From Patescibacteria group bacterium (GTDB lineage Bacteria > Patescibacteriota > Microgenomatia > UBA10105 > UBA927): 64,000 nucleotides of DNA. The DNA lies in NCBI GenBank assembly GCA_049322955.1, contig JBMOPU010000012.1:886186-950185 (forward strand), in the 5' to 3' direction. The position numbers and the translations under genes are program-made. Each line of letters begins with the position of its first letter. The stretch's first letter is position 1. This document shows positions 657 to 37,381 of the stretch, in pieces. Below the pieces are notes generated by a model, which saw only the letters and a list, made by a program, of their open reading frames with translations, did no database searches and had not been told where the DNA came from.

Positions 657-1279
657 ACTTTTTTAACCGCAAATAAATCAAAGCATATGGATGGAACGCG
701 AAAAAAAATAACTTCCGAAATAAGCGAAATGAAGCCCCAAAAAAAATACGGTTTATGTCTGATACCCGCATGCTCCGTTCGTAATATTTTTAACCCTCTA
801 AGACCGTATACGACATATCCTAATTTAGTCAAATCACTAATTACCCAACCTGATTTATGAACCTGATACGGATTACCGTCGTACGCTTCTTGTTCATAAA
901 AACCATTTGGTGTTAATAGAATAATTTTTTTTCTGGCTATTTTCTCCATGGATTTAATCATTTTGATTGCCTCGCTCTTTTCAAGATGCTCGATGACATC
1001 AATTGATACAACCGCATCAAAACTCTTATTTTTATAATAATTTCCTAATCTACGTATATCCCCTAACTTATAAGAGTCGTGAAGCTTTCTTTTTTTACTT
1101 AGCTGCAGAGTTTTAGGATATATTTCGATGCCTTCACTTATAAATGTTTTACGAATATGCCCTATTGCGGAATTATATCCGCACCCCACATCCAAAACAG
1201 TTTTACAACCTCGCAGATGCCATTCAAGGCATTTAAAGAAAAAAATATTTTGAATATAGACGATAAAATTACGCAGCAT
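653..1279 (-). CDS. class I SAM-dependent methyltransferase
   Basis: Motif I VLDVGCGYN and a D-acidic motif II (AVVSIDVIEH) fit the Methyltransf_11/23 type. Length 208 aa. Confidence 0.75.
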   Translation of the reverse strand: MLRNFIVYIQNIFFFKCLEWHLRGCKTVLDVGCGYNSAIGHIRKTFISEGIEIYPKTLQLSKKRKLHDSYKLGDIRRLGNYYKNKSFDAVVSIDVIEHLEKSEAIKMIKSMEKIARKKIILLTPNGFYEQEAYDGNPYQVHKSGWVISDLTKLGYVVYGLRGLKILRTEHAGIRHKPYFFWGFISLISEVIFFRVPSICFDLFAVKKV

Positions 1280-2543
1280 AATTGCTCATGATGAAAAAAG
1301 CATTGGCGAATGTTCTTTCCCAGGTCGCATTCTTTGCATAATCATATGCACGACTTCTCATTTGTATATAACGTTTTCTATCAGATAGCAATGAAATCAC
1401 GGCGTTGCTGAACTCTCTAATGGTATCATTAACAACGAGGGCACCGCCATACTCAGCTACTTCTTTGCCTAACGGGGGGACTTTTGAGGAGATAACGGGT
1501 AGTCCGGCCGCACAGTACGCACGAATTTTACCAGCATCGGCATAAAACCTTATTGAACCTGGAAAAGATCGGTAGGGCGCAACTCCAAGCGCGCATTCAC
1601 GAAGCAAACTTGCCATTTTCGCTCCATCGGGTACATATCCGTAAAATTTAATATTTTTTTCTAAGTGAAGTTCTGCGACTAGTGATTGAAGTACGGGCAA
1701 TCGCTCCCCACCACCTATAATCCGCAACGTCGCTGTAGGGATTGCTTTTCGGATCTTTTGCATTGCGCGAATGATAAGATCTGGGCCATTCTCTTCACCC
1801 AAGGTCCCCATATAAACTAAGGCATGCTTTTTAATTTTAGTAATTTTTAAGGATTGAATTTGTGTAGCTAATAGACCGTTCGGAACATGAATGACCGGAG
1901 CTGATCTTACTGCGTTAAGCCCTGCAGAAATACGTGCCGGCTGCATAGCTTTCGAGACATCCCATATGTAATCCGAATGCATAGCCGCAAACCGATCAAG
2001 AACTAGATAAACCCGGTTAAAAAGTTTGTTGGCATACCGGTTTGGAGAATAATCCGATACGTAGTAGACGACCGTCTTCACCCTGCCGATGAAACGTAGG
2101 AGAATGCCCGCGATTGCATTGACGCTCTCAAGACCGATAAAGTAGTCAAAGCGGGTACTATCCCGAAATGCCCAATCGATCACCGACAGGAAATCCCGTA
2201 TCTTGAACGGCACCTGGGTGGCGTTGCTGTTGGTGAGCCGTAAAAACGGCGAAAGTATTCCGTACCACCAACCCATTTTATGAGAAATATATTTTTTGTT
2301 TCCGTCGTTGTATTCCTCGATTTTGTACGATATATCCTCTTCGCCCGGAACCAGCTGATCGAGTAAGACTAATTTTTTCACCCGGGGAAGCAAAAAATCA
2401 CGGAGCGGCTCGACGCTTCCGTTGGTCGGCATTCGTTTGCCGTTAGACCAGAGGGAAAAGGTCGCAAAAAAAACGGTACTGTCGGGAGAAAGGGTAAAGT
2501 TACGTACGTTTTTCATGCTGGACCCGAAGTTTTGCTTCTTCAA
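1269..2543 (-). CDS. glycosyltransferase family 4 (GT-B, Glycos_transf_1)
   Basis: C-terminal GT4 signature: VYMGTLGEENGPDLIIRAMQKI ... LRIIGGGERLPVLQSLV ... KFYGYVPD. Confidence 0.8.
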   Translation of the reverse strand: MKKQNFGSSMKNVRNFTLSPDSTVFFATFSLWSNGKRMPTNGSVEPLRDFLLPRVKKLVLLDQLVPGEEDISYKIEEYNDGNKKYISHKMGWWYGILSPFLRLTNSNATQVPFKIRDFLSVIDWAFRDSTRFDYFIGLESVNAIAGILLRFIGRVKTVVYYVSDYSPNRYANKLFNRVYLVLDRFAAMHSDYIWDVSKAMQPARISAGLNAVRSAPVIHVPNGLLATQIQSLKITKIKKHALVYMGTLGEENGPDLIIRAMQKIRKAIPTATLRIIGGGERLPVLQSLVAELHLEKNIKFYGYVPDGAKMASLLRECALGVAPYRSFPGSIRFYADAGKIRAYCAAGLPVISSKVPPLGKEVAEYGGALVVNDTIREFSNAVISLLSDRKRYIQMRSRAYDYAKNATWERTFANAFFIMSNYAA

Positions 2544-3324
2544 CCATCGCGGCTATCCCCTCCCGCAACTCGATTGAGGGAAGCCAGCCGGGAACCCTGC
2601 CGCAGTTGGGTGAAGCGATAGGATCGTGTCCCTTTTTGGTACCAGGAATCACCTTCGCGTTTGTCATGTCGGCGATCAAATTGGCAACATCAATGATACG
2701 TACCCATTCGTAACTGCTGGCGTCATAGACGGTTCGTCGCGGCTTTTTTTCGTTGAGCGCCATATAGAATGCGTTGGATAAGTCGGTAATATGTGTGAAC
2801 TGCCGCCATTCCTCGCCGTCGGTCATCATGGTGATCTTTTTTGTTTTTAGAGCCTGGTAGATAAAATCTGAGATCACGTGACTTTTGATATCCTCCCCTT
2901 CCATATAACCGTAGGCATTCCAGACCCGAACACAGACGCCGTTTAACAACCCCGTCCATACTTCTCCTAAGCGCTTGGTCACACCGTAGACCGTGTCCAC
3001 TTCCTCGGACAACTGGCTGGAAACAAACAAAAAGGGTTTTTTTGCCTTCTCCACCTGATCAAAAACATTTTTCATCAGGGCAAGATTCCAATCGAGCTGA
3101 TTTTTCTGAAGCTTCGGCACATAAAGATACTTACTCCCGCCGACATCCCACGCCAAAAAATAGACTTTATCAACTTTCGCCAGCGGGAGCTTGGCAAACC
3201 GCGCATCTTCCTTTTTTCCTCGCTTCACATCGAATCGTATTACCTTTTCGCCTTTCGCCTCCAAAAATCGGCAAAACGGCGTGCCGATAAATCCATCCGA
3301 ACCGATAACGAGATTGGTCTGCAT
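2500..3324 (-). CDS. NAD(P)-dependent sugar-nucleotide epimerase/reductase (short SDR)
   Basis: N-terminal Rossmann motif VIGSDGFIGTPF and a YxxxK catalytic motif (YGVTK). Length 274 aa. It sits directly downstream of the GME-like gene. Confidence 0.65.
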   Translation of the reverse strand: MQTNLVIGSDGFIGTPFCRFLEAKGEKVIRFDVKRGKKEDARFAKLPLAKVDKVYFLAWDVGGSKYLYVPKLQKNQLDWNLALMKNVFDQVEKAKKPFLFVSSQLSEEVDTVYGVTKRLGEVWTGLLNGVCVRVWNAYGYMEGEDIKSHVISDFIYQALKTKKITMMTDGEEWRQFTHITDLSNAFYMALNEKKPRRTVYDASSYEWVRIIDVANLIADMTNAKVIPGTKKGHDPIASPNCGRVPGWLPSIELREGIAAMVEEAKLRVQHEKRT

Positions 3325-3332
3325 ACAAGGAA

Positions 3333-4328
3333 TTATTTATCTTTGCGGTTATGACGCACCTGTTCGTTGATCCATACGTAGGTCTGGGCGAGACCGTCAT
3401 AGAGCTTGGTCGAAGGTGCCCAGCCGAGCTTCTTTTTGATGAGGCGATTATCAGATGATCTCCCGCGAACACCTAACGGTCCTTTAATGTGTTTAATCTT
3501 TAACTTTTTGCCGGCGATCTTCATCACCATTTCGGCCAGTTCATTAATACTCACCATTTCTTCGGATCCGATGTTGACCGGACCTTCAAAATCACTGTCC
3601 ATGAGCTTGCGTACTCCGTTTAAACACTCGTCGATATACAGGTATGACCGCGTCTGTTTCCCGTCCCCCCACATTTCGATGGTGCCGCCGTCTTTTGCCT
3701 GCGCAACCTTCCGACACATGGCGGCGGGTGATTTTTCCTTTCCGTTATTCCAACTTCCCTCGGGACCGAATATGTTATGGAATCGCGCGATGTGCACTTC
3801 CATACCGTAGTTACGCTTATACGCAAGATACATCCGTTCGCCGAAGATTTTCTCCCACCCGTATTCACTATCGGGTGCGGCGGGATATGCGGAAGATTCC
3901 TCGCAATTGGGGTTATTGGGATCCATCTGATTCCGTTCCGGATATATGCAGGCCGATGAGGAGAAAAAGATTTTCTTTATTTTGGCAAGTCTTCCGTAAT
4001 GCAGTGCATTGAGATTTATTTGTGCCGAATTATGCATGACGTCGGCATCATGATCTCCCGTAAAGATATATCCTGCGCCCCCCATATCGGCCGCCAATTG
4101 ATACACCTCATCAAACGGCAAGTTAAAGACTTTCTGACAAAATTTCTGATCACGAAGATCGCCGAGCAGGAACTCGTCAGCAGGACTTTTGCTGTATTCG
4201 TGACGTTTGATGTCTGCTCCCCGCACCCAATAGCCTTCAGCCTTCAGTCGCTTTACCATATGACCGCCGATAAAGCCTCCTGCACCGCACACTAACGCTA
4301 TTTTATGATTTCGTGATATTTTTTTCAT
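3333..4328 (-). CDS. GDP-mannose 3,5-epimerase-like enzyme (GME family, extended SDR)
   Basis: Rossmann motif VCGAGGFIGGH. Conserved blocks match plant GME as I recall it: LAADMGGAGYI, FSSSACIYPE, YGWEK (YxxxK), RFHNIFGPEGSW, GKEKSPAAMCRK, MWGDGKQTRSY, IDECLNGV, PVNIGSEEMVSINELAEMV, GVRGRSSDNRLIKKKLGWAP. Confidence 0.8.
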   Translation of the reverse strand: MKKISRNHKIALVCGAGGFIGGHMVKRLKAEGYWVRGADIKRHEYSKSPADEFLLGDLRDQKFCQKVFNLPFDEVYQLAADMGGAGYIFTGDHDADVMHNSAQINLNALHYGRLAKIKKIFFSSSACIYPERNQMDPNNPNCEESSAYPAAPDSEYGWEKIFGERMYLAYKRNYGMEVHIARFHNIFGPEGSWNNGKEKSPAAMCRKVAQAKDGGTIEMWGDGKQTRSYLYIDECLNGVRKLMDSDFEGPVNIGSEEMVSINELAEMVMKIAGKKLKIKHIKGPLGVRGRSSDNRLIKKKLGWAPSTKLYDGLAQTYVWINEQVRHNRKDK

Positions 4329-4344
4329 AGACTATAAAAGTAGG

Positions 4345-6360
4345 TTACTCTCGCGAATAATTATTTATTTTGATTATTATACATATTCCGGCAAAAATTA
4401 CCCATGCCAGGATGAGCAGGGGGCCTACAACGGATTGAGGAACATATCTTACAGTTGCAACTCCATGAACTCCTTTCGGAATCGTATATTCCTGCAAACC
4501 GTCGGGTGTTCGCTTTGGTTTCAATTCGATATCTTGCACTGAAAGCATCCAATACGGATTGTATGTCTCTGAAAAAATGATTGAAGCATCGCTATCACGC
4601 TCTGGTAGTACTAATGAGTATTCAGCTGGGGATATCATCGATACCGAAATTGATTGATTTGGCTGATCCACAAAAAAAGCATGGCCAAACGATATCGATG
4701 TACGCCAAATTGAAATACCGTCTATACGATCGTATCTTTCATAACGACGTGTTTCGTCAATGGCATTAATTATTGACTGCCGAGCATTATTATCCGGTTT
4801 TCCGTCTTTTACAAAAAGTTCATGTTCTACATCACTCGGAACAACAATATACTTGACTCCGTATCGTGCCAGCTGTTTATCATTTCCCTCTTCGGTGATC
4901 CAGGGAATAAACGCAGAGGTGCTGGCAATAGACAGTGTCTCTAATGAGATTGCTCGCTTGTTATCATCATAGTAACCGTATCTACTTCTGGTTGGAACCC
5001 ACAGAACCCGTGCAAAACCGTTATCCTCTCTCAGAAAATCCTTTAGTAAGACATATTCATTGGGTACTTTACCTGGAACTAATGTGCCGCGTATCCCGCC
5101 GGCATAAAAATCTCTGAAAGCGAACAACAGTAGACTCAACAATAAAGCAAAAAACCCCGTGCGAAGGTATATAAACAGTTTTTTATGTTTGATTGCGCGC
5201 ATAACAGCATCATTACTACGTTCTAACGTGTAGGCAATAAGCACCGTATAGGAGATTGAAATGAGAACATAAAATTTTGTCGGATCACGAAACATAACAA
5301 ATCCGGGAACATGCACGAACATCCACTCATAAAGAGATCCGAAAGGTTGATTAACCCCTTTTGCTAAAAATGCTCCAATGAGTCCCATAAAAGCGAAGAA
5401 CAAAATTTTTATTTTTTTCTCACGATCTTCCTTACCAAGGAACAACAGGGAACTGAAGGCAAGAATGGGAAATACAAGAAATTCGGGTCGTAAAAATGAC
5501 ATTTTTCCGAAGATATTTTCCGGCCAATTCGGATGAAGCAATGACATGGTATGAGATTGGTCTGCGAAACTGAAAAAGCGAAGCGCATCGGAAGATAAAT
5601 ATACCGGGCTCAACAAGGTATCGATGGGCGTTCGGTAAATAATTAACGGGAGGATCCAATACGCATGCAACCCGAAAATTATGAGGCCGGCACCGGTCCC
5701 GACTAACATGAGCCTAATATATACAACTTTCTTTACTCCTTTATTCAAAAAAACAAATACAATATAGGGCACAATTGCCATTACGGTGATATAAAAAATT
5801 CGCGCGTCAAACATAAGCTGAATGGCACCTATGACACCGACTAAACAGGTGGTGCGTACCAACTTGATAGATTCTCTATGGAGCAGATCCACAAGATGCA
5901 TGCTGAGATGAATAACAAGTGGTGCTATCGCAATTGCCCAAATCACTCCCATTTGTCCTCCTGAGAGAACCATAATAAAGTGCGTATTTATCACATACAG
6001 AATTCCCAGGAAAGAGAAGCGCGCCCTGACTAGGGACTGGGTAAGCCTGATGCTTGAAAATAATGCGATGATGATAAGCGGGATAAACCACACGATTCTC
6101 TCCGTAAATTCCCACGGAAGAGACATATTGGAAGCTATCCGGGCGGTGATAATGTACCACGTATCAAGAGGGGCCAATATCATTTTCCCCCCGCCCAATC
6201 CGTTTCCAAAATAGGTTGACCATGAAACCACCCATGGGTTCATGGAGCTGGAAAGCTCGACAAATCTGTATCCCCAATCGCCTGATGAAAGCGTACCGCT
6301 GATTCCCCATCGAACAAATATCGGGAGCAGTAACGTCATTGACAAGAATACGAAGATCAT
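4345..6360 (-). CDS. large polytopic membrane protein with YfhO-type C-terminal module (GT-C-like)
   Basis: Many TM helices followed by a C-terminal soluble domain ending YNPYWMLSVQD...IPKGVHGVATVRYVPQS and a final TM anchor. This is the same module seen in the YfhO-like proteins of the window. Sequence is AT-rich. Confidence 0.5.
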   Translation of the reverse strand: MIFVFLSMTLLLPIFVRWGISGTLSSGDWGYRFVELSSSMNPWVVSWSTYFGNGLGGGKMILAPLDTWYIITARIASNMSLPWEFTERIVWFIPLIIIALFSSIRLTQSLVRARFSFLGILYVINTHFIMVLSGGQMGVIWAIAIAPLVIHLSMHLVDLLHRESIKLVRTTCLVGVIGAIQLMFDARIFYITVMAIVPYIVFVFLNKGVKKVVYIRLMLVGTGAGLIIFGLHAYWILPLIIYRTPIDTLLSPVYLSSDALRFFSFADQSHTMSLLHPNWPENIFGKMSFLRPEFLVFPILAFSSLLFLGKEDREKKIKILFFAFMGLIGAFLAKGVNQPFGSLYEWMFVHVPGFVMFRDPTKFYVLISISYTVLIAYTLERSNDAVMRAIKHKKLFIYLRTGFFALLLSLLLFAFRDFYAGGIRGTLVPGKVPNEYVLLKDFLREDNGFARVLWVPTRSRYGYYDDNKRAISLETLSIASTSAFIPWITEEGNDKQLARYGVKYIVVPSDVEHELFVKDGKPDNNARQSIINAIDETRRYERYDRIDGISIWRTSISFGHAFFVDQPNQSISVSMISPAEYSLVLPERDSDASIIFSETYNPYWMLSVQDIELKPKRTPDGLQEYTIPKGVHGVATVRYVPQSVVGPLLILAWVIFAGICIIIKINNYSRE

Positions 6361-6371
6361 AATTATTTAAG

Positions 6372-7424
6372 CTACGATTGCCCTAGCTTTCGTACAATTT
6401 TTCTCAACGGTGAAATTATTCTTGATAATCTTGCTCTTATACTACTTCCGTTGTATTCCCATATGTACGCGCATAGGGCAAGTGCGATGAAATAATAAGT
6501 CCAAACTGCATACCCTTCGGCGATATCAATTTTGTTGAGTGCCACGTATACGGTCGAAAGCATATACATGGCCAAACCTACGATAAAATAGGCACTTCCG
6601 CCGATATTAAACTTTACGATTACAAAAAATAGAGTGGCAAGCTTAAAATATAGCTCTGCTTCATATCCCATTTCCTGTAGCGGTACATATACTGAACTAT
6701 ATATCCGATACGCAATAAACACTATTAATGTTGCGGTTACATACCTGTTGTTCATTATTTTCCATATCAAATACAACAGTGTCGGCAGAAGATATAAAAG
6801 AATATAGGAATAAAACTCCACGTCCTGTGATAGATTTTCAATTTTTATCTTAAAGTATTTCATAAATGTCTCTAAATCTTTCAAGGGATGTATCTTGTCT
6901 ACACGATATTTTGTTAAAAAGGCGACAGTATCAAAATGCACCTGTATACCTTCCCCTTTCGTATATTCGCTTTCAAGCGTAACGGTGTATCGTATATTTT
7001 TAGATTCAATAATCGTTGGAAATCCTAGAGGGTAAAAATTTCCCCCGTAAAGGACACGCATGTCATAGTGTCCCGTAAATAACAGTTCGCCCGTGTCCTG
7101 ATTCATTAATTTGAAAGTAATTACCCCTTCTGGATCTTCTTTAGGTAACTTGAAACGCAGTGCAATCGTTCCGAGGTTATTCATCTGGGATGTGAAACTG
7201 AACTGCACGGTTCCCGGGTTGGGCAAAGTTACATATTCATTCTCTTCTACATTTTTCTGATGATAAAAATTCAAGGAAAAAAAGCTTGCTCCCGGATAAT
7301 TAACAATCCCGTATAAAAATCCGATAAGCGCCAATATGCACGGAATAATGATCCAGGCAACACTTACCTTTAGAAGATGGTAAAGCTTAAAATATTGTTT
7401 TTTTTCCATGGAAGATTTCTTCAT
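6372..7424 (-). CDS. membrane protein with N-terminal anchor, ~200-aa extracytoplasmic domain and C-terminal TM bundle
   Basis: One TM, then a hydrophilic beta-rich stretch, then 4-5 TM helices. An A8 tract lies at codons 7-9 (coords 7398..7405). Function unknown. Confidence 0.45.
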   Translation of the reverse strand: MKKSSMEKKQYFKLYHLLKVSVAWIIIPCILALIGFLYGIVNYPGASFFSLNFYHQKNVEENEYVTLPNPGTVQFSFTSQMNNLGTIALRFKLPKEDPEGVITFKLMNQDTGELLFTGHYDMRVLYGGNFYPLGFPTIIESKNIRYTVTLESEYTKGEGIQVHFDTVAFLTKYRVDKIHPLKDLETFMKYFKIKIENLSQDVEFYSYILLYLLPTLLYLIWKIMNNRYVTATLIVFIAYRIYSSVYVPLQEMGYEAELYFKLATLFFVIVKFNIGGSAYFIVGLAMYMLSTVYVALNKIDIAEGYAVWTYYFIALALCAYIWEYNGSSIRARLSRIISPLRKIVRKLGQS

Positions 7425-7433
7425 ACACTCCGC

Positions 7434-9668
7434 TTAATTGACACTTTTTCCCTTTTTTTGTACATAGCCAGCGTAAAGTACCAATGCGATAGAGATAATG
7501 TAACCCGTTATGCTTATGAAATTACCTATATTCTGCAGTCGCTTCGGCTCAAAAATTATTTTTAATTTTATGGGCTGGTCGCCACCTTCATATCCCCGTA
7601 TATTTCGCATTTGCGCCGTATCGATCTTCCATGCATTAGCGTAGTCATACACTCTCGTATTCATTCCCGTCATATACGGTATTGTATATTTGCCCTGTTT
7701 GTCCTCCAGGTAGATCCGCCAGGTTCGGTAATATGGCTCAAGCAATACCATATATTGGACTTTATCCGCATTATTTATTGTGACAGTATATTCCCCTTCA
7801 TTATTCTTAACATACGAAAAATTATCGTTAAGTTGAACTTCAGAGAGTGAAGCGGTGAGATAAAGGACATCAGTAATATATGCGGGATTGATTTCATATA
7901 ATTCATATCGATCGCCGAAACTGGCAATAACGTTTCCGGTCATATGATTGATAAATTCATCATCCTGTAGCGTATCCAATTTATTCGAACCCCATAACCA
8001 GAGCGCATAGTTTGCAGAAGATGCAGGAAGCCGCTGTTTGTTTACGATAATGTATCGAATACCCAACTCCTGAAATATTTTTCCCACTGCTTCATAATTC
8101 CTTTCTTTTATATTCTTGATAATTGTTTGGGCAATCCCCGGACGGGACGGTATATCGAAGCTTAGCTCTCCCGTGTAATCTATTTTATTTGTTAATGGGG
8201 TAATAATTGACGGTCCGCTATAGAAATGATTCGGTAGTTTTCCGTCTTCAATATAGATATATGATGGAAAAGTAAGAGGTAACCATACGAAATGCGCTCC
8301 CGTATCCATATTTTTTAGATAACGAACCATATCATTAAAATCCTGATTCAAAGTTCCTGAAATTTTTGTGGAAAACTGCTCACTTCTATGTTGTGGAAAT
8401 AGAAAGTTAAATCCTGAATAGACGGTGAGCACAATAATTGCGCATGCAAAAAATACGGCCAATTTCTTGTGCAGGTTTCCGATAATCCAAAGACTCCATG
8501 AGAGAAGGAATGCGTACTGAAATGCTAATGGTAGCGCAAATTTATCATACGAGGTTTTGAACATTGCGAATAATGGCACATATGAGTTGAGCAGTAAAAA
8601 TAATTTAAGGCTCCAAACATCTATATTTGGAGTAAATAAAATTACGGTAAATAAAAATGAAAAAATGCTCAATAAATAGATGGTTCTCCTATTATTTCTC
8701 TTTAGTCGGGCAAAGAGTATGCCTCCCAAAAGCACCGGCCAAAGATAGAGTGAATTCAGTGGATTAAATACGATATTCATTCCCCATCCTGTTCGTTCCT
8801 GTTGAAAAAACTGCGCTAAAATTGGATTGAGATGTGAGATCGCCGCAATATAATTTGCGTTCGCACGCGAGGCCGCCTTCAACGAATCAAATGATAACGC
8901 GGCAGATGAGCCAGCTTCAGTAATCAATTGAGAAGCAATTAGATGTATTATCCAGTGCGTGTTAAGTACAAGAAATGAGCATAAAAATATTGACGTAATT
9001 TTGATAAACACTAACGGTTTCCTTTTAAATTCTAAAAAAAGCAATGGAAGAACAGAAAAAAAGAATGCCCCATACCATGGAAGAGTTATGAGAGTCGCAC
9101 TTACTGCTGAATATATCAATGCACATAAGACGGGAAGAATATACCGCTCCTCCCGAACAGATATAATAAACAAATAGAGAAGCAACGGACACACGCTAAC
9201 TGCGAAAATAGACATGAGCTCATGGGTGTATAGCGTAGTGATGACAAAATTTGATAATACATAAGATAGTGCTGCGGCTATTTTAAATACCCAGCCGAAT
9301 CCAGATGCATCTGCTTTCAATTTGCCCATCAGAAGATAGAAAAACACAAATCCTGCTGCCAAATTAACTCCGTACATGGCAAATTGCACATTATGCCAGG
9401 GAATAAGCGATATTATCCAGATAAATATATAAAAGGGAGTTAAAAATGCTGGCGATGCATAAACACCGTACGTACCGAGTCTGTTTTGCGTAATAATGGA
9501 AGATGAATAGTGTTCAAAAAACGGTTTTGGCATAACATAATACAATCGCGTATCATCCCCACCGACATGATATAGTTGACCCCAAAAGAGCAAAGGAATT
9601 AAAAAAAGCGTAACGGCGATGAATGCCACTGCATATTTTGACAGAAAATTAAATATTACTTTTTTCAT
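7434..9668 (-). CDS. large polytopic membrane protein (GT-C-like) with C-terminal extracytoplasmic domain and TM anchor
   Basis: 744 aa. About 430 aa of TM helices with an early loop motif HVGGDDTRLYY, then a ~300-aa soluble domain containing YYRTWRIYLEDKQG, then a terminal TM. Confidence 0.5.
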   Translation of the reverse strand: MKKVIFNFLSKYAVAFIAVTLFLIPLLFWGQLYHVGGDDTRLYYVMPKPFFEHYSSSIITQNRLGTYGVYASPAFLTPFYIFIWIISLIPWHNVQFAMYGVNLAAGFVFFYLLMGKLKADASGFGWVFKIAAALSYVLSNFVITTLYTHELMSIFAVSVCPLLLYLFIISVREERYILPVLCALIYSAVSATLITLPWYGAFFFSVLPLLFLEFKRKPLVFIKITSIFLCSFLVLNTHWIIHLIASQLITEAGSSAALSFDSLKAASRANANYIAAISHLNPILAQFFQQERTGWGMNIVFNPLNSLYLWPVLLGGILFARLKRNNRRTIYLLSIFSFLFTVILFTPNIDVWSLKLFLLLNSYVPLFAMFKTSYDKFALPLAFQYAFLLSWSLWIIGNLHKKLAVFFACAIIVLTVYSGFNFLFPQHRSEQFSTKISGTLNQDFNDMVRYLKNMDTGAHFVWLPLTFPSYIYIEDGKLPNHFYSGPSIITPLTNKIDYTGELSFDIPSRPGIAQTIIKNIKERNYEAVGKIFQELGIRYIIVNKQRLPASSANYALWLWGSNKLDTLQDDEFINHMTGNVIASFGDRYELYEINPAYITDVLYLTASLSEVQLNDNFSYVKNNEGEYTVTINNADKVQYMVLLEPYYRTWRIYLEDKQGKYTIPYMTGMNTRVYDYANAWKIDTAQMRNIRGYEGGDQPIKLKIIFEPKRLQNIGNFISITGYIISIALVLYAGYVQKKGKSVN

Positions 9669-10823
9669 ATGTTCCTGTTAGAGCTGATGCACTTTGGGAA
9701 TGCAAAAGCACGCTTCGCATTAACCCAAAAGCCCAGCAAAGAACTGCTATCCAGACAATATTCCAGGAAAATAGATGCAGCCAATGTATACCGAATTCAT
9801 CTTTATTTCCCAAAAGAAATAATGTCGTAGCAAGCGTATATACAATCAGCCACAACTTTGATTCTGTCCAGGAAAATGCAAGAGGTAATACAAAATATTG
9901 CGCACTTATCCCGGTCGTGGTCGCTAAAAAGATAACCAACGAATGCCCCATGCTCCGCCAACTATCCTTACGCTTAGCCAAATACATGGCAATGAGGACA
10001 TTCACCACTACAGTTGCCGCAGTCAAGGCTATATATATCATACGTACGCCACCTGATGTCCCTCCAACAGAAGACTCCATGGTAAGCGTTTGTGAGTGCG
10101 CAAGCATCCGATAAACTGATGTAAGAAAAAAAGACACACCATATTGTCCCGGTATGCCACCATAAAAAAATACTTGCGTCACTATTTCCCTCCATGCGCT
10201 GACATAAGGAAGGAATGACATGAAAAAAATAATCATTGTCGTGGCAATTCTGAGGAAACCTTTTTTACACCCCAATGACTAAAAAACAGAATAAGAAGAG
10301 GAAAAAGAACGATGTGCTTGGTCAAAAGCGCCATTGTACCGAGCAGCCATGCGATAAACGGTAATTTTTTTTGAAAACTTAGCCAAGAAAGAATAAGAAA
10401 AAGAATGGCAAAATTATCGAATTGCCCGTGCTTAGAAGAAATAATCATCGATATGGGATTAAGAAAGTAGAAGAGAAGCGGGTGAAATATTGAAATCTTC
10501 CTCGTTCGGGCAATGTGTGTTAATACAACTAAGGTAACTACATCAACTACCGACAAAAAAAGTCTGATAAATACTGCAAACGGTACGCTCGGGAATATGT
10601 TAGTGCGTATCTGATCCAAGGTTCCCAATATATAAAACCATACAGGGGTATAATTATACGCGGATTGAGCTGAATATATGTTTTCTCCCTGATGGAAAAT
10701 CTCGACATCTTTAAGATAGTTCGTTATATCGACGTTATATGGCAGTGTGGAGAACCATGCTCGAAGGATAATCCCTGAAAGGAGCAAAATGACATATATA
10801 CCATGAAAGAATTTCGCATTCAT
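9649..10823 (-). pseudogene. polytopic membrane protein split by a +1/-1 frameshift at an A6/T6 tract (pseudogene, phase-off variant or sequencing error)
   Basis: Two overlapping minus-strand ORFs (10233..10823 and 9649..10275) are in different frames and both are all-TM. Shifting at the tract 10261..10266 joins ...FFSHWGVKK to GFLRIATTMIIFF..., giving a continuous ~400-aa membrane protein. Confidence 0.45.
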
Positions 10824-10827
10824 ATGG

Positions 10828-12441
10828 CTATTTTTCCATATATTTACCCACAGTCGATTTTAGAGTTTTGTTGTTCCAGTTTAACTTGACAACCTGCGCA
10901 TCAACAGTCAAAAGCTCTGCATCAAGATAAGATTTTTCTGAAAGATAAAATCTAAAACCGATCTTTCCATGCTCATAATATCCCTCACTCCCCCAATTCC
11001 ATAAATCCTCGGCTTTAAAAAAGCTATCATATCTATATATATTTGAATTAACCACCATAGCCACATATCCGACACCTGAGTAGAGAGGGGGTAAATCTCC
11101 GGTATTTACGATAATTGTTTTTGAACTCGTATACTTGCTGGCTTGTTGCAAGGCTTGCACATAACTTGCCATCGGTCTTGCAATGTTAAGAGCGTGATTG
11201 ATATCTTTATGAAAAAAAATAGTATTTCTAAGAATAATAAATGAGAACACCACATAAATTATAATTGACTTAGAGCTATATTTCTCCAATAAAGATCTAA
11301 CTAGCGCACCAAATAATAAAGATAAGAAAATTGCCGAAATATAATAGTGACGAGATTCAAGTCGTAGACTTGTAGGTAATAAAATATACGGCACTGCTGT
11401 TACTAATACTGAAAGTAAAGTAAAGCGAATAAAGTTTTTATCGATTAATTTCTGAAATAACAAGAACGCACCCATCCCAATTCCAATAACCGGACCAACG
11501 ATATAAAAAGATATAAATTCATTAAAAATATCCGCGTTAAGTATAAAACCATATGGAATAATCTTTGTCGAGAGCACAGTGTTTCCGATAAATTTTCCTA
11601 GGAATACTTTATCGTGATCATTTATGAGTAATGATGCCAGCATGGAAGCAGGCATAACGATTGAATTTTTAATAACATTTTGTAAATCGATGCCGCCAAT
11701 GTGTAGTTCTGAAACATTTTGAAAATAGAGGTAAATACTTCCAAAACGCAAAATCAGATATAAAGATATAAAAATAGCTGAGGTTGTAAATTTTTTGACA
11801 TTTCGAGATATGATAAGTTCATACAATGCAATTATTATCACAGCGACTATTACATCTTCTTTGAACAAAAGACCAACGAAGAGCGATATATATGCAACCG
11901 TAAAACCCCAGGATATTTTTCTTTCATAATTCGCATAGATTAGCAGACCGCTAAGTAACAAGAAGGTTGAAGGTAACCCAACCAACGATGCTGCATACCA
12001 AGTGATAGTTTGACTAGCTTGCGAAAATGTTAAAAAAAATAACGCAGAATAAAAGGATATTACTTTTGTAAAAAAACGTCTCGATAAAAAATACACCAAT
12101 AAAACATTAGCAATAGAGAATATATATGTAAAAATGAAGTATGGAAGCGTGTGTAGTTGAAATTGCTTATAAACGTAATAATAGGTGAACCATGACAGAG
12201 GTACAAAATGATAACTAAATGGTTTTATCAGACAAACGAGCCCGCAATCCCTAACTGATAACACCTTTCCAAAAAGGTACCACTCATCTGCTTGAAAATA
12301 TAATCCTTTAAGAGGTACAAATAAAGCCAACGAAATAAGTATTAAAATGCCAATCAGAAGAATATCTGATTTCAGCATATTTGCTTTTACTCTGCTTGCG
12401 AATTTGGACATATTGACTCGCACCAAGGCATATTTCCGCAT
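10828..12441 (-). CDS. polytopic membrane protein (GT-C-like), uncharacterised
   Basis: 537 aa. About 11 TM helices, then a C-terminal ~150-aa soluble domain. AT-rich. Confidence 0.5.
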   Translation of the reverse strand: MRKYALVRVNMSKFASRVKANMLKSDILLIGILILISLALFVPLKGLYFQADEWYLFGKVLSVRDCGLVCLIKPFSYHFVPLSWFTYYYVYKQFQLHTLPYFIFTYIFSIANVLLVYFLSRRFFTKVISFYSALFFLTFSQASQTITWYAASLVGLPSTFLLLSGLLIYANYERKISWGFTVAYISLFVGLLFKEDVIVAVIIIALYELIISRNVKKFTTSAIFISLYLILRFGSIYLYFQNVSELHIGGIDLQNVIKNSIVMPASMLASLLINDHDKVFLGKFIGNTVLSTKIIPYGFILNADIFNEFISFYIVGPVIGIGMGAFLLFQKLIDKNFIRFTLLSVLVTAVPYILLPTSLRLESRHYYISAIFLSLLFGALVRSLLEKYSSKSIIIYVVFSFIILRNTIFFHKDINHALNIARPMASYVQALQQASKYTSSKTIIVNTGDLPPLYSGVGYVAMVVNSNIYRYDSFFKAEDLWNWGSEGYYEHGKIGFRFYLSEKSYLDAELLTVDAQVVKLNWNNKTLKSTVGKYMEK

Positions 12442-12464
12442 AGTATGTATCAGATTTACTGAGA

Positions 12465-13508
12465 TTATTCATCTATATAATTCTCTACCCCTACGGTCAT
12501 CAGATAGTAATATTTCAAATGAGGATGCCTCATAATTTGAGGCCAAAACTCGTTGTCTGATCGAGTACGAATCGTCTTCTGTATATAGGCACGCTTATTG
12601 AGTGTTTTAGGCAAGATGCTAATATTCCAAAATATAGCTCTGTATATCGCCAACGCTATGCGTCCTTTATTTTTGATAACGCAGAATAATGAGTAAAGCA
12701 TGCATATAAAAAGGTGAATTGGAAGTATAGAGATTAACTTAAATGCTCCTAAATTTTTAATATAAGAGTTTATTCGATTTTTAAAGGAATGGTATTGAAC
12801 GAATGAATTATCCATTTGTCCACTTGTAGCTCCCATCTTGTGATAGACAATTGACGAAGGAACAAAGACAACTTTATAGCCACTCAACCACACCCTATGA
12901 CATAAGTCCGTTTCCTCAAAATAAGCAAAATAGTCCGAATCAAACATTTCACTATTAACAAGTACTGCATCTAAAGTTTTTTTTCGTATCATCAAACACG
13001 CACCTTTAGCCGAGTAAGTAAGTAACTGCTTGTTATAAAATGTTCCGTTTTTCTTTGCGTAACCGTAGTGGTACAGAAAGCCTGTAGGGGTAAGATATGC
13101 GCCCACCGAATCCAAATACCCTGGATTATCCATCATTAACAGCTTACTTTGCGCGGCTCCAATTGCTTTATCTCGTAAAAAAACTCGCACGAGATTACTG
13201 ATACATGTTGATGTAGCCATCGTATCGTTATTTAAAAGGAGGATATATTCTCCATGCGCAGAAGAAAGACCGGCGTTGTTGCCTCCCGCAAAGCCAATAT
13301 TTCTCGAAAGAGAAACGGTTACAACCTCAGGAAATTTTTGCCGGACAAATTCGACTGAACCGTCGTGAGATCCGTTATCAACAAAAATAATCTCAATGTG
13401 TCTATATTGCTGTTTTCTAAGACTATTTATGCATTTTTTGAGGTGATTTTTCCCGTTAAAATTTACTATAATAACTGATACAAGCGGGTGTTTTTCTGTA
13501 TTTTTCAT
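12465..13508 (-). CDS. glycosyltransferase family 2
   Basis: VSVIIVNFNG ... IIFVDNGSHDGS ... and a DxD region. Start moved to MKNTEKHP so the gene overlaps the upstream stop as ATGA. Confidence 0.8.
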   Translation of the reverse strand: MKNTEKHPLVSVIIVNFNGKNHLKKCINSLRKQQYRHIEIIFVDNGSHDGSVEFVRQKFPEVVTVSLSRNIGFAGGNNAGLSSAHGEYILLLNNDTMATSTCISNLVRVFLRDKAIGAAQSKLLMMDNPGYLDSVGAYLTPTGFLYHYGYAKKNGTFYNKQLLTYSAKGACLMIRKKTLDAVLVNSEMFDSDYFAYFEETDLCHRVWLSGYKVVFVPSSIVYHKMGATSGQMDNSFVQYHSFKNRINSYIKNLGAFKLISILPIHLFICMLYSLFCVIKNKGRIALAIYRAIFWNISILPKTLNKRAYIQKTIRTRSDNEFWPQIMRHPHLKYYYLMTVGVENYIDE

Positions 13509-14383
13509 TTCTTTTGTAATGCAACCATAATATTGGATGCCCAAAATTTGGAGGATATCTGTTTTTCATCAATATCTTCAATTATTTTTTCTAGCATTGA
13601 AATTCGCAGAAGTGATAAAAATGCCCCGAAAAGTTTTACAAGGTGTCCCGTGTAATATACCGCTTTAACTGCATATCTTTTTCCGAATAATGACACAATG
13701 TCTTCGAGTGAGTAATGACGGTAATGCCCCACTTTTCTATCAGAATACATGTAAATGGGAATGAACAACGGGAAGACATATCGGAAAGCAAGAGGGACAC
13801 CGACAATAACTATTCCAAATTTTTTTATGTATTCATTTAATTGAACTACTACCTTTTTATCATTTTGCAGGTGTTCTATAACATGCAGAAGAATTGTCAT
13901 TTGTACGCTTCTTTTTTTTAGCCGTAATTTTGTGATGTCTGAGGCTACAAACAGAATACGATTCTGTAATTTTTTTATCTTTGCGACTGCTCTCGCATGA
14001 AAAAGCCCTTCAATAGAAAGATCGCACGCGATGACCGTGTATCCTAACTCCGCAAGAGCAATGGAAACATATCCCTGACCACATGCCGCATCCAGAATTA
14101 TTGATTTTTTGTTCGTAGGCAGGAAAGGCTGTAACCGTCGAATATATCTATTCCGCCATTCAAATTGCGTATTTGCATAGTCATTTACATACTCTTTGTC
14201 ATAATAGTTTTTTTGATGTTCATTATGTGTGTCCTCAAACACCCTGTCATCCAGAAAATTTATCACGCCGTTGGTGACTGCATACCGCTTTTTGCAACGT
14301 CCACAAATGATTGCTTTTTTACCTTGCCCTGATAGGGCGCCGCCGCAAGACGGACAGCAAATTATTCTTAAAAGATTATTCAT
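13505..14383 (-). CDS. SAM-dependent methyltransferase with N-terminal Trm112-like zinc ribbon
   Basis: CPSCGG...CGRCKK ribbon, then ILDAACGQGYVSIALAELGYTVIACD (motif I) and a DVIEH-type motif II. Confidence 0.75.
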   Translation of the reverse strand: MNNLLRIICCPSCGGALSGQGKKAIICGRCKKRYAVTNGVINFLDDRVFEDTHNEHQKNYYDKEYVNDYANTQFEWRNRYIRRLQPFLPTNKKSIILDAACGQGYVSIALAELGYTVIACDLSIEGLFHARAVAKIKKLQNRILFVASDITKLRLKKRSVQMTILLHVIEHLQNDKKVVVQLNEYIKKFGIVIVGVPLAFRYVFPLFIPIYMYSDRKVGHYRHYSLEDIVSLFGKRYAVKAVYYTGHLVKLFGAFLSLLRISMLEKIIEDIDEKQISSKFWASNIMVALQKK

Positions 14384-15540
14384 AGTGCCTTCGCAAACTC
14401 ATACTCATATATTTTATATATATCGTTCTTTTCTGCATATAGTCTGCTCTGCGTACATATGTGTGTGTGCTTTTTTTTGTCTTTATAGAGATCTAAGACG
14501 CCCTTGGCAAATGAGCATGGGTCTCCCGGTACTACGATCCCTGTGCCGTATTTGATAACGCGTTTGGAGAAACTATAGCCCTTTGTCACAATGGTAGGTA
14601 TACCCGCAGCCGCATAAATTTGAATCTTCATAGGATCTGTGGTGGTAAGAAGTGAAGAGTCATCCTTCCTATAGGGCGCCAAACCGCAGAGGTATGAACC
14701 GAGTTTGGAAGCATACGTAAATATATCCTGATACCCATGTAATCGAACATAATTTTCCAGTGAAAATTTTTTTACTTTATTCAGTATGATTGCTTCTTCT
14801 GATCCTACTCCGATAATATCCAGTCTGAATGACGGCTCATATTTATGTATTTCTTTGAGTATGTCCGGTAATAGATCAGCCCCGTTCATGCGATTAAGCG
14901 TTCCTATGAAAACAAGTGTCGGCGTTTCTAACTTTTTATGCCTCCTGGGAAAAAGCGCCACCGGAACATTTGCGGGAATCACCCGTATGGGTTTTTGCTC
15001 CTTCATCCTTCTGCTTATTTGAATATCGTTCGATAATGCCCAATTTATATCACTGTTTGCATACGCAAAGCCGTCCAGCAAACGATACAAAACGTTCATT
15101 TTCGCTCCGCTAAAACGTTTTTTTGCAATACCGTGCGAATAAAAAATAACTCTTTTACATCCCCCGATACGACGGAAAAATATCGCTATGAGAGCAAGAA
15201 GAGAATTTTGTGCAATAACGAGGTCAAAAGATTGATGACGCATCCTGAATAACACCCACAGCCCCTGAAGGAAATGCAGGATATAGGTTAACGACGGGTG
15301 TCCGACGTATGTACGAATATTCTTCGTTGCTATCTTCTTGCCATATCTGTACTCATACACCTCGATATGCGTGAGTAACGGAATTTCAGGAAGGGGGAAT
15401 TTAATAGCTGCTACGTATTGTGTTTTATGATCATTCAAATAAAGAGTCAAAAAGTCTTGCATGGCAGTAGTGGCGTAATGGGACAGTAGGAGCACCCGCG
15501 AAGACCTGTATCTCTCTTTGTTGGTATCTTTTTCGTTCAT
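14380..15540 (-). CDS. glycosyltransferase family 4
   Basis: GT-B C-terminal region: VFIGTLNRMNGADLL ... RLDIIGVGSE ... RLHGYQD. A (TG)4 + T8 simple-sequence tract lies near the 3' end (14455..14478). Confidence 0.75.
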   Translation of the reverse strand: MNEKDTNKERYRSSRVLLLSHYATTAMQDFLTLYLNDHKTQYVAAIKFPLPEIPLLTHIEVYEYRYGKKIATKNIRTYVGHPSLTYILHFLQGLWVLFRMRHQSFDLVIAQNSLLALIAIFFRRIGGCKRVIFYSHGIAKKRFSGAKMNVLYRLLDGFAYANSDINWALSNDIQISRRMKEQKPIRVIPANVPVALFPRRHKKLETPTLVFIGTLNRMNGADLLPDILKEIHKYEPSFRLDIIGVGSEEAIILNKVKKFSLENYVRLHGYQDIFTYASKLGSYLCGLAPYRKDDSSLLTTTDPMKIQIYAAAGIPTIVTKGYSFSKRVIKYGTGIVVPGDPCSFAKGVLDLYKDKKKHTHICTQSRLYAEKNDIYKIYEYEFAKAL

Positions 15541-16481
15541 ACATTCTCACACATATGTTTTATTCCCTTGTCGATAGTATATTGCTCCTTAAAGGGTGTA
15601 AGCGTAAGAAATTGTTTGTTTGAATATTTCCGATGAACAGATTGGCTTTCTGGCGGTGAGTACCTTATTTTTGATTTTGAACCTGTAATATCCACAACTT
15701 TTTTGGCCAGTTCGTATAAATTTATCCGTTGTGATCCGATAATGTTCACCGGTTCACCCGTTGCGTGCTTCTCAATAAGAAGCGTTAGTGCCCGTGCAAG
15801 ATCGGTAACGAACATAAATGTTAATTCCTTGCTTTTTGGTGCCGTAATCTTTATCGGCTTATTGGCTTTGGCAAGATGTATGAATGTCGGGATAACTCGT
15901 CCTTTTGCTACATCGTCCCCGGGTCCATATACGTTGCCCGCTCTGGCAATTGCGATGCGAAGATTCTTATCGTGATAATACTTGCCTAAAATTTCTGTAT
16001 ATCTTTTTACCCATGCATACGCGCCGATATCTTCATCAAACCAATAGCCCCGATTAAAACGCTTATCCACCACACTTGATTTTGATATTGCATAGACTTC
16101 TACAGAGCTCATTAAGAGTAGCCGTGATACCCGGTTTATTTTGCATGCATCCAAAATATTCAACGCGATTCTCGTGTTCGTCTGCAAGATTTCATGTGTA
16201 TGCGCCTGCTTATACGCCGTCCCGCCATCTAAGCCTGCGAAATGAAACACAATATCGGTGTTTTTCAGGACGCGAACGGTATTTTCGCGATTATTTAAAT
16301 CAACGACGCAAACTCGTAGATTTTTTTTCCGTACGGCATTAGGTTTCTGTTTTGATCGATGAGACACTAGTGCCGTCACCCGGGCACCATGTTCAGACAA
16401 AAATCGTACAACATGACTTCCGATAAACCCTCCGGCTCCGGTCACGGCAACTTTTTTATTAATCCAAAAGGAGTCACTCAT
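15537..16481 (-). CDS. NAD-dependent epimerase/dehydratase family protein
   Basis: VAVTGAGGFIGSHVV Rossmann motif and YAWVK (YxxxK). 314 aa. Confidence 0.75.
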   Translation of the reverse strand: MSDSFWINKKVAVTGAGGFIGSHVVRFLSEHGARVTALVSHRSKQKPNAVRKKNLRVCVVDLNNRENTVRVLKNTDIVFHFAGLDGGTAYKQAHTHEILQTNTRIALNILDACKINRVSRLLLMSSVEVYAISKSSVVDKRFNRGYWFDEDIGAYAWVKRYTEILGKYYHDKNLRIAIARAGNVYGPGDDVAKGRVIPTFIHLAKANKPIKITAPKSKELTFMFVTDLARALTLLIEKHATGEPVNIIGSQRINLYELAKKVVDITGSKSKIRYSPPESQSVHRKYSNKQFLTLTPFKEQYTIDKGIKHMCENV

Positions 16482-17314
16482 GATTTTCGCAGTATTGCAG
16501 TAAGAATACCTAGCAATCCGGCTGTGTATTCGACTGTCCTCATAATAATAAAGGCGAGTGTATCAACGGGACGGTGGAGAAACAATCTCCAGTTACGGAT
16601 ATATGCCATACGTATGGGAAAGTAACTTTTGGTTGCCGCTTTTGGTCGCTTCGCAAGGTATAACAACGAATCTCTGCCGTACATATATCGTTTTCGAAAC
16701 AGTTTTCTTAGCGTAAGCGCCCCTTCATTATGACGAAGAATTTCAGTACTCCAGTAAGTGGCGAATCCCCCTTCTTGCAACGCTACCGCCAGATCCCAAT
16801 CATCGCCACCGCCACCCAGTGATGTATCAAGCCCCCCTAATCGTTTCCATACGCTGGCCTTCACAAAACGAGGCGCTTCGATAGTTTCGTCACCCCAGTA
16901 GCATTGCCGCTCTAAATTTTTTGCCCGTGCCCAAATACCTTCACCGAATGAATCCTCCGATACGATCACCGCGTCTGCCCCTTTTTTACACAGATCAACG
17001 CAATTTTTTATTACTTTTGGGGTCAACTCCATATCTGCATCAATGATATATATGAATTCACCCTTAGCTTTTTTCGCTCCGTAATTCCGTCGGTAAGGAG
17101 CATCAAAATATCCCCGGGGCACCTTTGGGTTATAGGTATATACATGTGCGCCATACTGCTTGGCTATTACCCTTGTGTCGTCGGTGGAGTTACCGTCAAC
17201 GAGTATGATTTCAATATCTTTGTGTGTCTGTGCCCTCACGCTTCGAAGGCAATTTTCTAAAAAAACGGCGGAATTTTTTGTGGGTATGATGACGGATACT
17301 TGCCCTTTTTTCAT
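16478..17314 (-). CDS. glycosyltransferase family 2
   Basis: VSVIIPTKNS ... IEIILVDGNSTDDT ... IIDADME. Confidence 0.8.
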   Translation of the reverse strand: MKKGQVSVIIPTKNSAVFLENCLRSVRAQTHKDIEIILVDGNSTDDTRVIAKQYGAHVYTYNPKVPRGYFDAPYRRNYGAKKAKGEFIYIIDADMELTPKVIKNCVDLCKKGADAVIVSEDSFGEGIWARAKNLERQCYWGDETIEAPRFVKASVWKRLGGLDTSLGGGGDDWDLAVALQEGGFATYWSTEILRHNEGALTLRKLFRKRYMYGRDSLLYLAKRPKAATKSYFPIRMAYIRNWRLFLHRPVDTLAFIIMRTVEYTAGLLGILTAILRKS

Positions 17315-18414: not shown

Positions 18415-18426
18415 AGATAGGCATGA

Positions 18427-19209: not shown

Positions 19210-19221
19210 ACATGCCCCGTA

Positions 19222-20247: not shown

Positions 20248-20259
20248 AACGATCCTCCT

Positions 20260-21051: not shown

Positions 21052-21052
21052 C

Positions 21053-22986: not shown

Positions 22987-22993
22987 CATACGA

Positions 22994-26723: not shown

Positions 26724-26726
26724 AGG

Positions 26727-31183: not shown

Positions 31184-31187
31184 AGTA

Positions 31188-32816: not shown

Positions 32817-32821
32817 GCGTA

Positions 32822-34450: not shown

Positions 34451-34459
34451 ACTCAGTAG

Positions 34460-37346: not shown

Positions 37347-37381
37347 TGTACTAAATCAACTTATGCTTGACCATTGAGGGA

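Follow-up and report, generated by a model that had tools for sequence, protein, structure and literature searches.

Why should a markedly AT-rich run of genes lie inside a glycan-biosynthesis locus of about 50% GC? The question is raised by a 64,000-nucleotide stretch (the window, to whose numbering all coordinates refer) of the 990,597-bp contig of a Patescibacteria metagenome-assembled genome (MAG; locus tag ACOY3M_04935), in which a block at 4345..17314 breaks sharply on its left side, and more gradually on its right, with the composition of its surroundings. In a sister strain the core of this block is replaced by other genes, with breakpoints that fall inside genes; the block genes are under purifying selection, and genes of mobile elements are lacking. 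We consider it likely that the block is a replacement-type hypervariable glycan island, a cassette refilled by homologous recombination from the gene pool of lower-GC relatives.

A compositional break within a glycan locus

The GC content of 4345..17314 is 0.389 (38.9%), as against 0.491-0.505 in every 13-kb window across 17315-64000, where GC at third codon positions (GC3) is about 0.51-0.59. In 1-kb bins GC is 0.33-0.455 at 4001-17000 and 0.45-0.54 at 17001-64000; gene by gene it is 0.333-0.452 (GC3 0.301-0.424) at 4345-17314 and 0.458-0.524 (GC3 0.45-0.59) at 17311-63905. Block and flank differ over 100-bp bins with p = 2.5e-49 (Mann-Whitney), cumulative-sum (CUSUM) change points fall at ~3.9-4.3 kb and ~17.5 kb, and Markov-normalised tetranucleotide z-scores correlate at r = 0.74-0.89 between pieces of flank but at r = 0.41-0.58 between block and flank. 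An AT-rich block had been reported by an earlier, sequence-only reading, which proposed sliding-window GC, GC3 and tetranucleotide analysis as checks; its existence is confirmed by binned and gene-wise measures, by both statistics and by tetranucleotides, and each of the three proposed analyses sets it apart from the flank. That reading had placed the block at 4345-14383. Its left edge stands, but the right edge moves to ~17.3 kb, since the genes of 14380..17314 (GT4, epimerase, GT2) are intermediate, with GC 0.41-0.45 and GC3 0.39-0.42. The GC profile of the block is V-shaped with its minimum in 10828..12441 (GC 0.333), and the shift is visible at codon positions 1, 2 and 3 alike. The features on which the argument draws are these (GT2, GT4 and GT-C denote glycosyltransferase classes; SAM, S-adenosylmethionine; ORF, open reading frame; TM, transmembrane).

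4345..17314, minus strand: AT-rich block 1, the putative variable cassette slot of the glycan locus, recognised by composition and by variation between relatives
7700..14040, minus strand: strain-specific core by sliding identity (93-100% outside, non-homologous or 58-77% inside)
4345..6360, minus strand: 671-aa polytopic membrane protein, GT-C-like by TM prediction and hhalign, itself without a Pfam match
6372..7424, minus strand: 350-aa membrane protein, presumed accessory subunit from synteny in loci L022, L024 and L025
7434..9668, minus strand: 744-aa predicted GT-C-fold glycosyltransferase, AftD/STT3-like by AlphaFold2 (AF2) model and Foldseek
9649..10823, minus strand: split GT-C-like gene, ORFs 10823..10233 (196 aa) and 10236..9649 (195 aa)
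10828..12441, minus strand: 537-aa predicted GT-C-fold protein, ArnT/OST-like by a weak PMT_2 match, AF2 and Foldseek
12465..13508, minus strand: GT2, 347 aa from the ATG at 13508 (Glycos_transf_2, E 1.8e-23), 57.6% aa identity to the sister strain copy
13505..14383, minus strand: SAM-dependent methyltransferase, which holds the right-hand breakpoint at ~14040; the sister strain keeps a remnant of 129 aa
14380..15540, minus strand: GT4 of the shared, intermediate-GC block end, 94% aa identity to the sister strain, dN/dS 0.27
15537..16481, minus strand: NAD-dependent sugar epimerase/dehydratase of the shared block end (Epimerase, E 1e-42), 99% aa identity to the sister strain
16478..17314, minus strand: GT2 at the right edge, with homologues at 97% in L003, 78% in L022, 60% in L006 and 57% in L010
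17311..18414, minus strand: right-hand anchor GT4, conserved and GC-normal, dS 0.32 and dN/dS 0.06 against the sister strain
3333..4328, minus strand: left-hand anchor epimerase, conserved and GC-normal, 85-86% aa identity to L004, L005 and L007, dS 0.31 and dN/dS 0.05
1..1279, minus strand: start of AT-rich block 2, with methyltransferase 653..1279 and the N-terminus of a 1154-aa protein
1269..3324, minus strand: GT4 and epimerase between the two AT-rich blocks, GC-normal, syntenic with L004 and L007, absent from the sister strain (within an 11.1-kb stretch)

As read from sequence, the membrane proteins of block 1 are four GT-C-fold glycosyltransferases, of which one is split, and an accessory protein; its remaining genes encode two GT2, one GT4, a methyltransferase and an epimerase/dehydratase. 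Two gene calls of the sequence-only reading had to be revised: 9649..10823 had been taken for a single gene and consists of two ORFs, and 12465..13508 and 13505..14383 had been counted among the membrane-protein genes, although neither product is polytopic by hydropathy. Across the GC boundary, 4 nt (17311-17314) are shared by the start of the GT2 gene 16478..17314 and the stop of the anchor GT4.

The entire window is one glycan-biosynthesis locus of tightly packed genes, nearly all on the minus strand. The locus exceeds 80 kb (window 1..64000 plus at least 16.7 kb leftward, seen in L026), about 8% of the 990.6-kb contig, and in a genome scan with the anchor GT4 the closest named relatives are Candidatus Gottesmanbacteria MAGs. 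Besides GT2 and GT4 genes it contains SAM methyltransferases and sugar epimerases/dehydratases, and GT-C-type family matches (PMT_2, YfhO, PTPS_related, GT87-like), some of them sub-threshold, were obtained for at least 14 genes; three tandem PMT_2 genes of ~542 aa each lie at 31188..36094. The sole Wzx-type flippase (Polysacc_synt_3) is at 57929..59380, 40 kb from the block. The GT2 genes 22300..23010, 20260..21216 and 59367..60149, which resemble AglJ, dolichyl-phosphate hexose transferase, ArnC and PpgS, all below cutoff, would supply a polyprenyl-phosphate-synthase-like function and sit in the conserved backbone of the locus. Among window ORFs of at least 150 aa we found no family match to Wzy, Wzz or an O-antigen ligase, and none to an initiating phosphoglycosyltransferase (Bac_transf or MraY-type); a GtrA-family small flippase had no match in the window or in block 2. 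At the far window edge, the 186-aa ORF 63345..63905 has no family match and resembles the C-terminal part, or a remnant, of a larger membrane glycosyltransferase gene.

The AT-richness of 1..1279, also noted by the sequence-only reading, is real but belongs to the separate block 2, which reaches ~9 kb, mostly beyond the window start (L026 4941..13935, equivalent to window 1279 to about -7715). Gene GC in block 2 is 0.27-0.38. Besides the methyltransferase and the 1154-aa protein (weak DUF5667 match), it holds a 125-aa ORF of 27% GC, a hexapeptide acyltransferase and two GDSL proteins, in one of which (963 aa) a GT-C-like membrane domain is fused to an SGNH/GDSL hydrolase. This content suggests functions in glycan O-acylation or de-acylation. 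Beyond it GC3 changes from 0.33 to 0.61 across one intergenic gap, and from ~7.8 kb left of the window start GC, after rising sharply to ~0.52, stays at 0.48-0.55 (GC3 0.57-0.64) for at least 9 kb. Because GC recovers past block 2, and because the flanks of the locus in five related genomes lie at about 0.47-0.53, the AT-rich parts are the outliers; the converse, that the GC-rich part might be the anomaly in a genome of low GC, had been allowed for by the sequence-only reading and is borne out by neither set of values.

Replacement of the core between close relatives

The most informative comparison is with GCA_964449585.1 (loci L003 and L024), an independent MAG from another data set, here called the sister strain. 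It matches window 25737..14338 at 93-100% identity, unbroken over the 17.3-kb GC boundary and at 98-100% over 19-25.7 kb; from 14040 to ~7700 the two are non-homologous or share 58-77% identity, and over 7700..3400 identity is again 87-99%. Both breakpoints of this core are intragenic, in the methyltransferase (~14040) and in the 744-aa gene (~7700-8300). Between them the window carries a GT2, the 537-aa GT-C protein, the split GT-C-like gene and a divergent 744-aa allele, and the sister strain a GT2, a pyruvyl transferase, another GT2, a 552-aa protein, a methyltransferase and its own 745-aa allele. The sister core is AT-rich too (GC 0.32-0.38), in an island bounded by GC of 0.50-0.56. The strain-specific core of the window (~7.7-14.04 kb) has GC 0.33-0.38 and GC3 0.30-0.38, and the block ends common to both strains have GC3 of ~0.40. 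Judged from the sequence identity of their flanks, the two genomes probably belong to one species.

To the left, an 11.1-kb stretch (window 3356 to about -7767, including block 2) is absent from the sister strain, and the flank past block 2 resumes at 98.5% identity over 5.85 kb. We considered recombination between paralogous epimerases as the source of this 11.1-kb difference and rejected it: the junctions lie at gene ends or in intergenic sequence, with neither chimeric genes nor repeats.

Two further segments differ between these strains. The first, 25738..28423, adjoins the stretch of 98-100% identity and shares ~74% identity with the sister strain; it is GC-normal, contains the DUF5667 protein 26727..27260 and the GT2 27257..28024, and on its sequence looks like a second allelic replacement, one without a GC signal. 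The second is a 300-bp patch at 75% identity, 18538..18837, inside methyltransferase 18427..19209 (87% aa identity overall), with 90-100% identity on both sides, and is probably a short recombination tract.

Selection on the block was read from ratios of nonsynonymous to synonymous divergence (dN/dS) against the sister strain, leaving out 15537..16481 and 20260..21216, which are near-identical and give ratios of ~0.9-1.2 on very few differences. Block genes have dN/dS of 0.10-0.27 (0.13 for 6372..7424) and flank genes mostly 0.03-0.15. Relaxed selection, offered by the sequence-only reading as one cause of the low GC, finds no footing here: the ratios are low, homologues are conserved, and the sole decay is one split gene. 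Synonymous divergence itself is strongly uneven: dS is ~0.005 in the genes starting at 15537, 19222 and 20260 and 0.03-0.09 in the left flank, rises to 0.31-0.32 in both anchor genes at dN/dS of 0.05-0.06, and reaches 0.49 in methyltransferase 18427..19209 and 1.5 in GT2 27257..28024. The anchor genes that border the block thus carry a peak of mostly synonymous substitutions, as is described at the borders of replacement flexible genomic islands for exposed glycans, which are exchanged by homologous recombination (PMC4033161).

No tRNA genes were found, no flanking repeats beyond short, chance-level ones, and no integrase, transposase, phage or defence families in Pfam, PHROG and PADLOC. A mobile element or prophage was rejected on these grounds, the PHROG matches being to generic GT2 and methyltransferase domains only, and a defence system likewise, its sole PADLOC match being a generic methyltransferase domain.

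In other, more distant relatives the same pair of anchors encloses different genes. The slot holds unrelated GC-normal genes over 2.9 kb in L007, 6.1 kb in L005 and 6.7 kb in L004, and at least 10 kb of different AT-rich genes in L006; all versions consist of GT2, GT4 and GT-C genes, methyltransferases and sugar epimerases. With the sister core replaced between edges of 93-100% identity, three relatives carrying GC-normal genes and a fourth another AT-rich set, the proposal of the sequence-only reading that this is a hypervariable surface-modification island is well supported. Several of the MAGs compared (among L003, L005, L007, L008, L009 and L016), from 'binchicken'/SRP co-assemblies, are titled 'uncultured Gammaproteobacteria bacterium' despite a Patescibacteria-type locus syntenic with Gottesmanbacteria MAGs; these titles look like placeholder taxonomy.

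Taken together, these observations would fit the following course of events. The block would be a replaceable cassette within the >80-kb cell-surface glycan locus of a ~1 Mb Patescibacteria genome related to Candidatus Gottesmanbacteria, and may encode a self-contained sugar-modification module. Exchange would proceed by homologous recombination anchored in GT4 17311..18414 and epimerase 3333..4328, with conserved genes of the block itself as further anchors, so that strains which are probably of one species could carry different cores. The cassettes would owe their AT-richness to a pool of genes held in common with lower-GC relatives. The older block ends, shared with the sister strain, may have drifted partly toward host composition (GC3 ~0.40), and the core (GC3 0.30-0.38) would be undrifted.

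Origin of the low GC

A foreign, lower-GC origin is the best-supported cause of the AT-richness, and it is one that we infer; horizontal acquisition, as the sequence-only reading had it, fares best among the causes considered, although no close donor was found. The nearest approach to a donor is L022, in which all 22 kb seen of the 85.5-kb contig SRR33452767_77236 have GC of 0.33-0.44, anchors included. Its gene order is that of the window at 57-78% aa identity, its orthologues of the shared block ends have GC3 of about 0.30-0.34, and in a tree of the anchor GT4 it nests among mid-GC lineages. The methyltransferase 653..1279 of block 2 has an orthologue in L007 that is 71% identical, with GC3 of 0.58 in L007 and 0.29 in the window, so the same gene family exists in both compositions.

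Several points weigh against a cassette taken from lower-GC relatives. In a search of 5.8 billion proteins no donor appeared: the best homologue of the 744-aa protein, at 69%, is the sister strain copy, and that of the 537-aa protein is at 40%. Block tetranucleotides correlate with those of L022 at r = 0.32-0.41 and match no other low-GC locus compared, and the genome-wide low GC of L022 is an assumption from 22 kb of 85.5 kb. The assignment of the sister strain to the same species is drawn from 98-100% identity over ~13 kb of flank, and the GT-C calls come from models of moderate confidence (pLDDT 69-76, TM-scores 0.34-0.45). Finally, the NCBI MAG and the contig of a second (Logan) assembly probably derive from the same reads, which counts in favour of an assembly artefact as well.

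Of the alternatives, the one that survives best, though we regard it as unlikely, is drift in situ, by which the block would have been inherited vertically and become AT-rich where it stands, either because selection was relaxed or because mutation or repair in this region was biased toward AT. The split gene, the block dN/dS that is somewhat above that of most flank genes (0.13-0.27 against 0.03-0.15), the graded rather than step-like GC of the right edge and the lack of an identified donor are what such drift would leave. However, dN/dS is far below 1, and conserved counterparts of the genes occur in L022, L024 and L025; amino acids and all codon positions are shifted, which would have needed prolonged exposure to AT pressure; sharp left edges are seen, as in the change of GC3 over one intergenic gap described above; the sister strain core differs through whole-gene replacement, not point changes; and in L004, L005 and L007 the slot is filled by GC-normal genes.

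Slightly less probable again is an effect of gene class, by which low GC would be selected in these genes whatever their ancestry, either in membrane proteins rich in Phe, Ile, Leu and Lys or through rare codons that keep expression low. Polytopic membrane proteins do have the lowest GC here, and processing genes are lowest in GC in many polysaccharide clusters for a reason that is unresolved (PMC3715488). Yet at least 17 polytopic membrane or GT-C genes elsewhere in the locus have normal GC3 (0.51-0.59; n=17 for the polytopic membrane proteins), the soluble enzymes of the block (GT2, GT4, methyltransferase, epimerase) are AT-rich like their membrane neighbours, and block 2 orthologues are GC-normal in L007. 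Membrane proteins inside the block also differ in amino acids from those outside it (FYMINK 35% vs 28%; GARP 19% vs 27%). Because outside membrane proteins are GC-normal, soluble block enzymes are AT-rich, and all codon positions and amino acids are shifted, the AT-richness is not a membrane-protein effect, and the comparison within the locus largely refutes this explanation.

The Logan assembly of SRR32167788 is 100% identical to window 7311..22540 and its proteins (L002) are 100% identical from 14383 down to the window start, so that it spans all junctions. A mis-join in assembly or binning of a stretch from a low-GC organism to a 50%-GC contig is therefore very improbable: the sequence is metagenomic, its two assemblies probably share reads, and low-GC relatives with similar genes (L022) exist and could co-occur in the sample, but the second assembler agrees in sequence or gene products over all junctions, GCA_964449585.1 independently has the same 17.3-kb and 4.3-kb junctions with 93-99% identity across them, the 4-nt gene overlap spans the GC boundary, and the GC change at the right edge is gradual.

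Predicted membrane glycosyltransferases and proposed surface variation

GT-C enzymes typically use sugars carried on polyprenyl phosphate, at the outer side of the membrane. The GT-C identity proposed by the sequence-only reading gains fold-level support for 7434..9668 and 10828..12441 and profile homology for 4345..6360. By hydropathy the 744-aa protein has ~8 TM helices, a ~300-aa soluble domain and a C-terminal TM helix; its family is rare (13 homologues among 5.8e9 proteins searched) and has an invariant GGDD, G36-G37-D38-D39. Its AF2 model (predicted local distance difference test score, pLDDT, 76; predicted TM-score, pTM, 0.78) gives AftD (6w98) as the best Foldseek match at E 2e-7, and STT3 at E 4e-6 to 1e-3. 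The 537-aa protein is nearly an orphan, with 6 homologues, the best at 40% identity, and invariant residues Q50, D52, E53 and W54; Foldseek with its model (pLDDT 69) ranks GT-C enzymes in each of the first 23 places, led by ArnT (5ezm, E 4.8e-4), and its PMT_2 match is sub-threshold (E 8.9e-5, 23.2 bits vs a cutoff of 26.1). For both proteins the models support a GT-C assignment.

For the 671-aa protein, with ~9 TM helices, a soluble domain and a C-terminal TM helix by hydropathy, the GT-C assignment is supported through sequence profiles, which align it over its full length with the 744-aa family as a distant paralog (hhalign probability 99.9%, E 4e-36). Its family, with an invariant D28, comprises 2306 cluster representatives at E <= 1e-3 and 608 at E <= 1e-30; neither Pfam nor NCBIfam has a model for it. 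Those of its members that are named belong to Microgenomates (Levybacteria, Gottesmanbacteria) and to the Patescibacteria group, and some relatives have matches to PF09586 YfhO or PF11847. An alternative start at 6339 gives a 664-aa product, as called in the Logan assembly. The 350-aa product of 6372..7424 has no family match, and in relatives its gene is always flanked by the 744-aa and 671-aa genes. Across the GT-C candidates 8-10 TM helices are predicted, and the acidic motif lies in the first extracytoplasmic loop by predicted topology only. None of these candidates reached a curated GT-C family above threshold in Pfam or NCBIfam; PDB sequences, searched with the 671-aa and 744-aa proteins and with the profiles of their families, returned noise only, and NCBIfam gave nothing usable for the membrane proteins (MmpA, 31 bits vs a cutoff of 210).

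The two ORFs of the split gene are 58% and 48% identical to the two halves of an intact 383-aa L022 protein, and their Alg6_Alg8 match is weak (16.4 bits vs a cutoff of 25). Near 10240-10250 the reading frame is broken, stop and start overlapping in ATGA, and the gene may be a pseudogene, a functional two-piece enzyme or the product of a consensus indel. A homopolymer slip in the T7 run at 10223-10229 was rejected as its cause, since the L022 alignment puts the frame change slightly upstream.

In these respects the proteins resemble AftD (6w98), STT3/AglB/PglB, ArnT (5ezm) and YfhO: a polytopic N-terminal domain with an invariant acidic motif in the predicted first outer loop, an extracytoplasmic C-terminal domain, and best structural matches that are exclusively GT-C. 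They depart from known GT-C enzymes in that the 671-aa and 744-aa families lack a curated model and TM-scores are 0.34-0.45. Of the components of the three-part extracytoplasmic glycosylation systems CsbB/GtcA/YfhO and GtrA/GtrB/GtrC (PMC5836110, PMC11127046), the locus has GT-C candidates and GT2 genes that resemble the polyprenyl-phosphate synthase, all below cutoff; for the small GtrA-type flippase the search described above gave no match.

At the level of the whole island, the closest parallel is with the O-antigen (rfb) and capsule clusters of Enterobacteria (PMC3715488), and the phenomenon, well known from such loci, is expected rather than surprising. In Salmonella galactose-initiated O-antigen clusters the serotype-specific centre has 28-37% GC against 51-52% for the genome (PMC3715488); here too the centre is AT-rich (33-39% vs ~50% GC), GC is intermediate near the conserved flank and lowest in polytopic membrane 'processing' genes, segments of differing history form a mosaic, and exchange would run through conserved flanking genes. 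Unlike those clusters, the membrane enzymes here are predicted GT-C transferases rather than Wzx/Wzy, the Wzx-type gene lies outside the block, neither Wzy nor an initiating transferase was matched among the ORFs scanned, and the locus is far larger. The Patescibacteria host, moreover, is monoderm and ultra-small and is not known to have lipopolysaccharide, unlike Enterobacteria.

A second parallel is with replacement flexible genomic, or 'glycotype', islands (PMC4033161) such as the O-chain cluster of Pelagibacterales (PMC11898729), in which the same position and general function are kept by different genes. As in these, the hallmarks of integrase, tRNA and insertion sequence are missing, exchange would be by homologous recombination, dS is raised in the border genes (0.31-0.32 vs 0.03-0.09), and near-identical segments stand beside highly divergent ones. 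In contrast to the islands of aquatic prokaryotes, replacement here is nested, with only the core differing from the sister strain, the breakpoints are intragenic, and the host belongs to the candidate phyla radiation (CPR). The general function shared by the versions of the slot would be that of a glycan presumably exposed at the surface. No published description of such islands in Patescibacteria was found in the literature searched.

A wider picture may be sketched more tentatively, and we hold it with rather less conviction than the island itself: Gottesmanbacteria-related Patescibacteria may give ~8% of a 1-Mb genome to a >80-kb glycan supercluster with about 20 or more genes for polytopic membrane proteins, at least 14 of them with GT-C family matches, in which AT-rich cassettes, passed between lineages that differ greatly in GC, would define the 'glycotype' of a strain. 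These cassettes would be built around two GT-C families without a curated model, one rare (13 homologues) and the other widespread (more than 2300 cluster representatives). Both families merit such a model. The anchors GT4 17311..18414 and epimerase 3333..4328 could be used to catalogue cassette diversity in metagenomes, in which islands of this kind are likely break points for MAG assemblies and bins. Bacteria of the CPR are not yet culturable and their surface chemistry is essentially unknown. If the proposed exchange is true, and if, as we infer, the cassettes come from a low-GC donor lineage and recognition by phages or hosts has driven their exchange, the locus would offer a way to study how episymbiotic CPR cells alter the surface by which phages and host cells know them, and the classical signature of variation in an antigenic sugar coat, a low-GC centre swapped by recombination between conserved anchors, would operate in CPR bacteria too.

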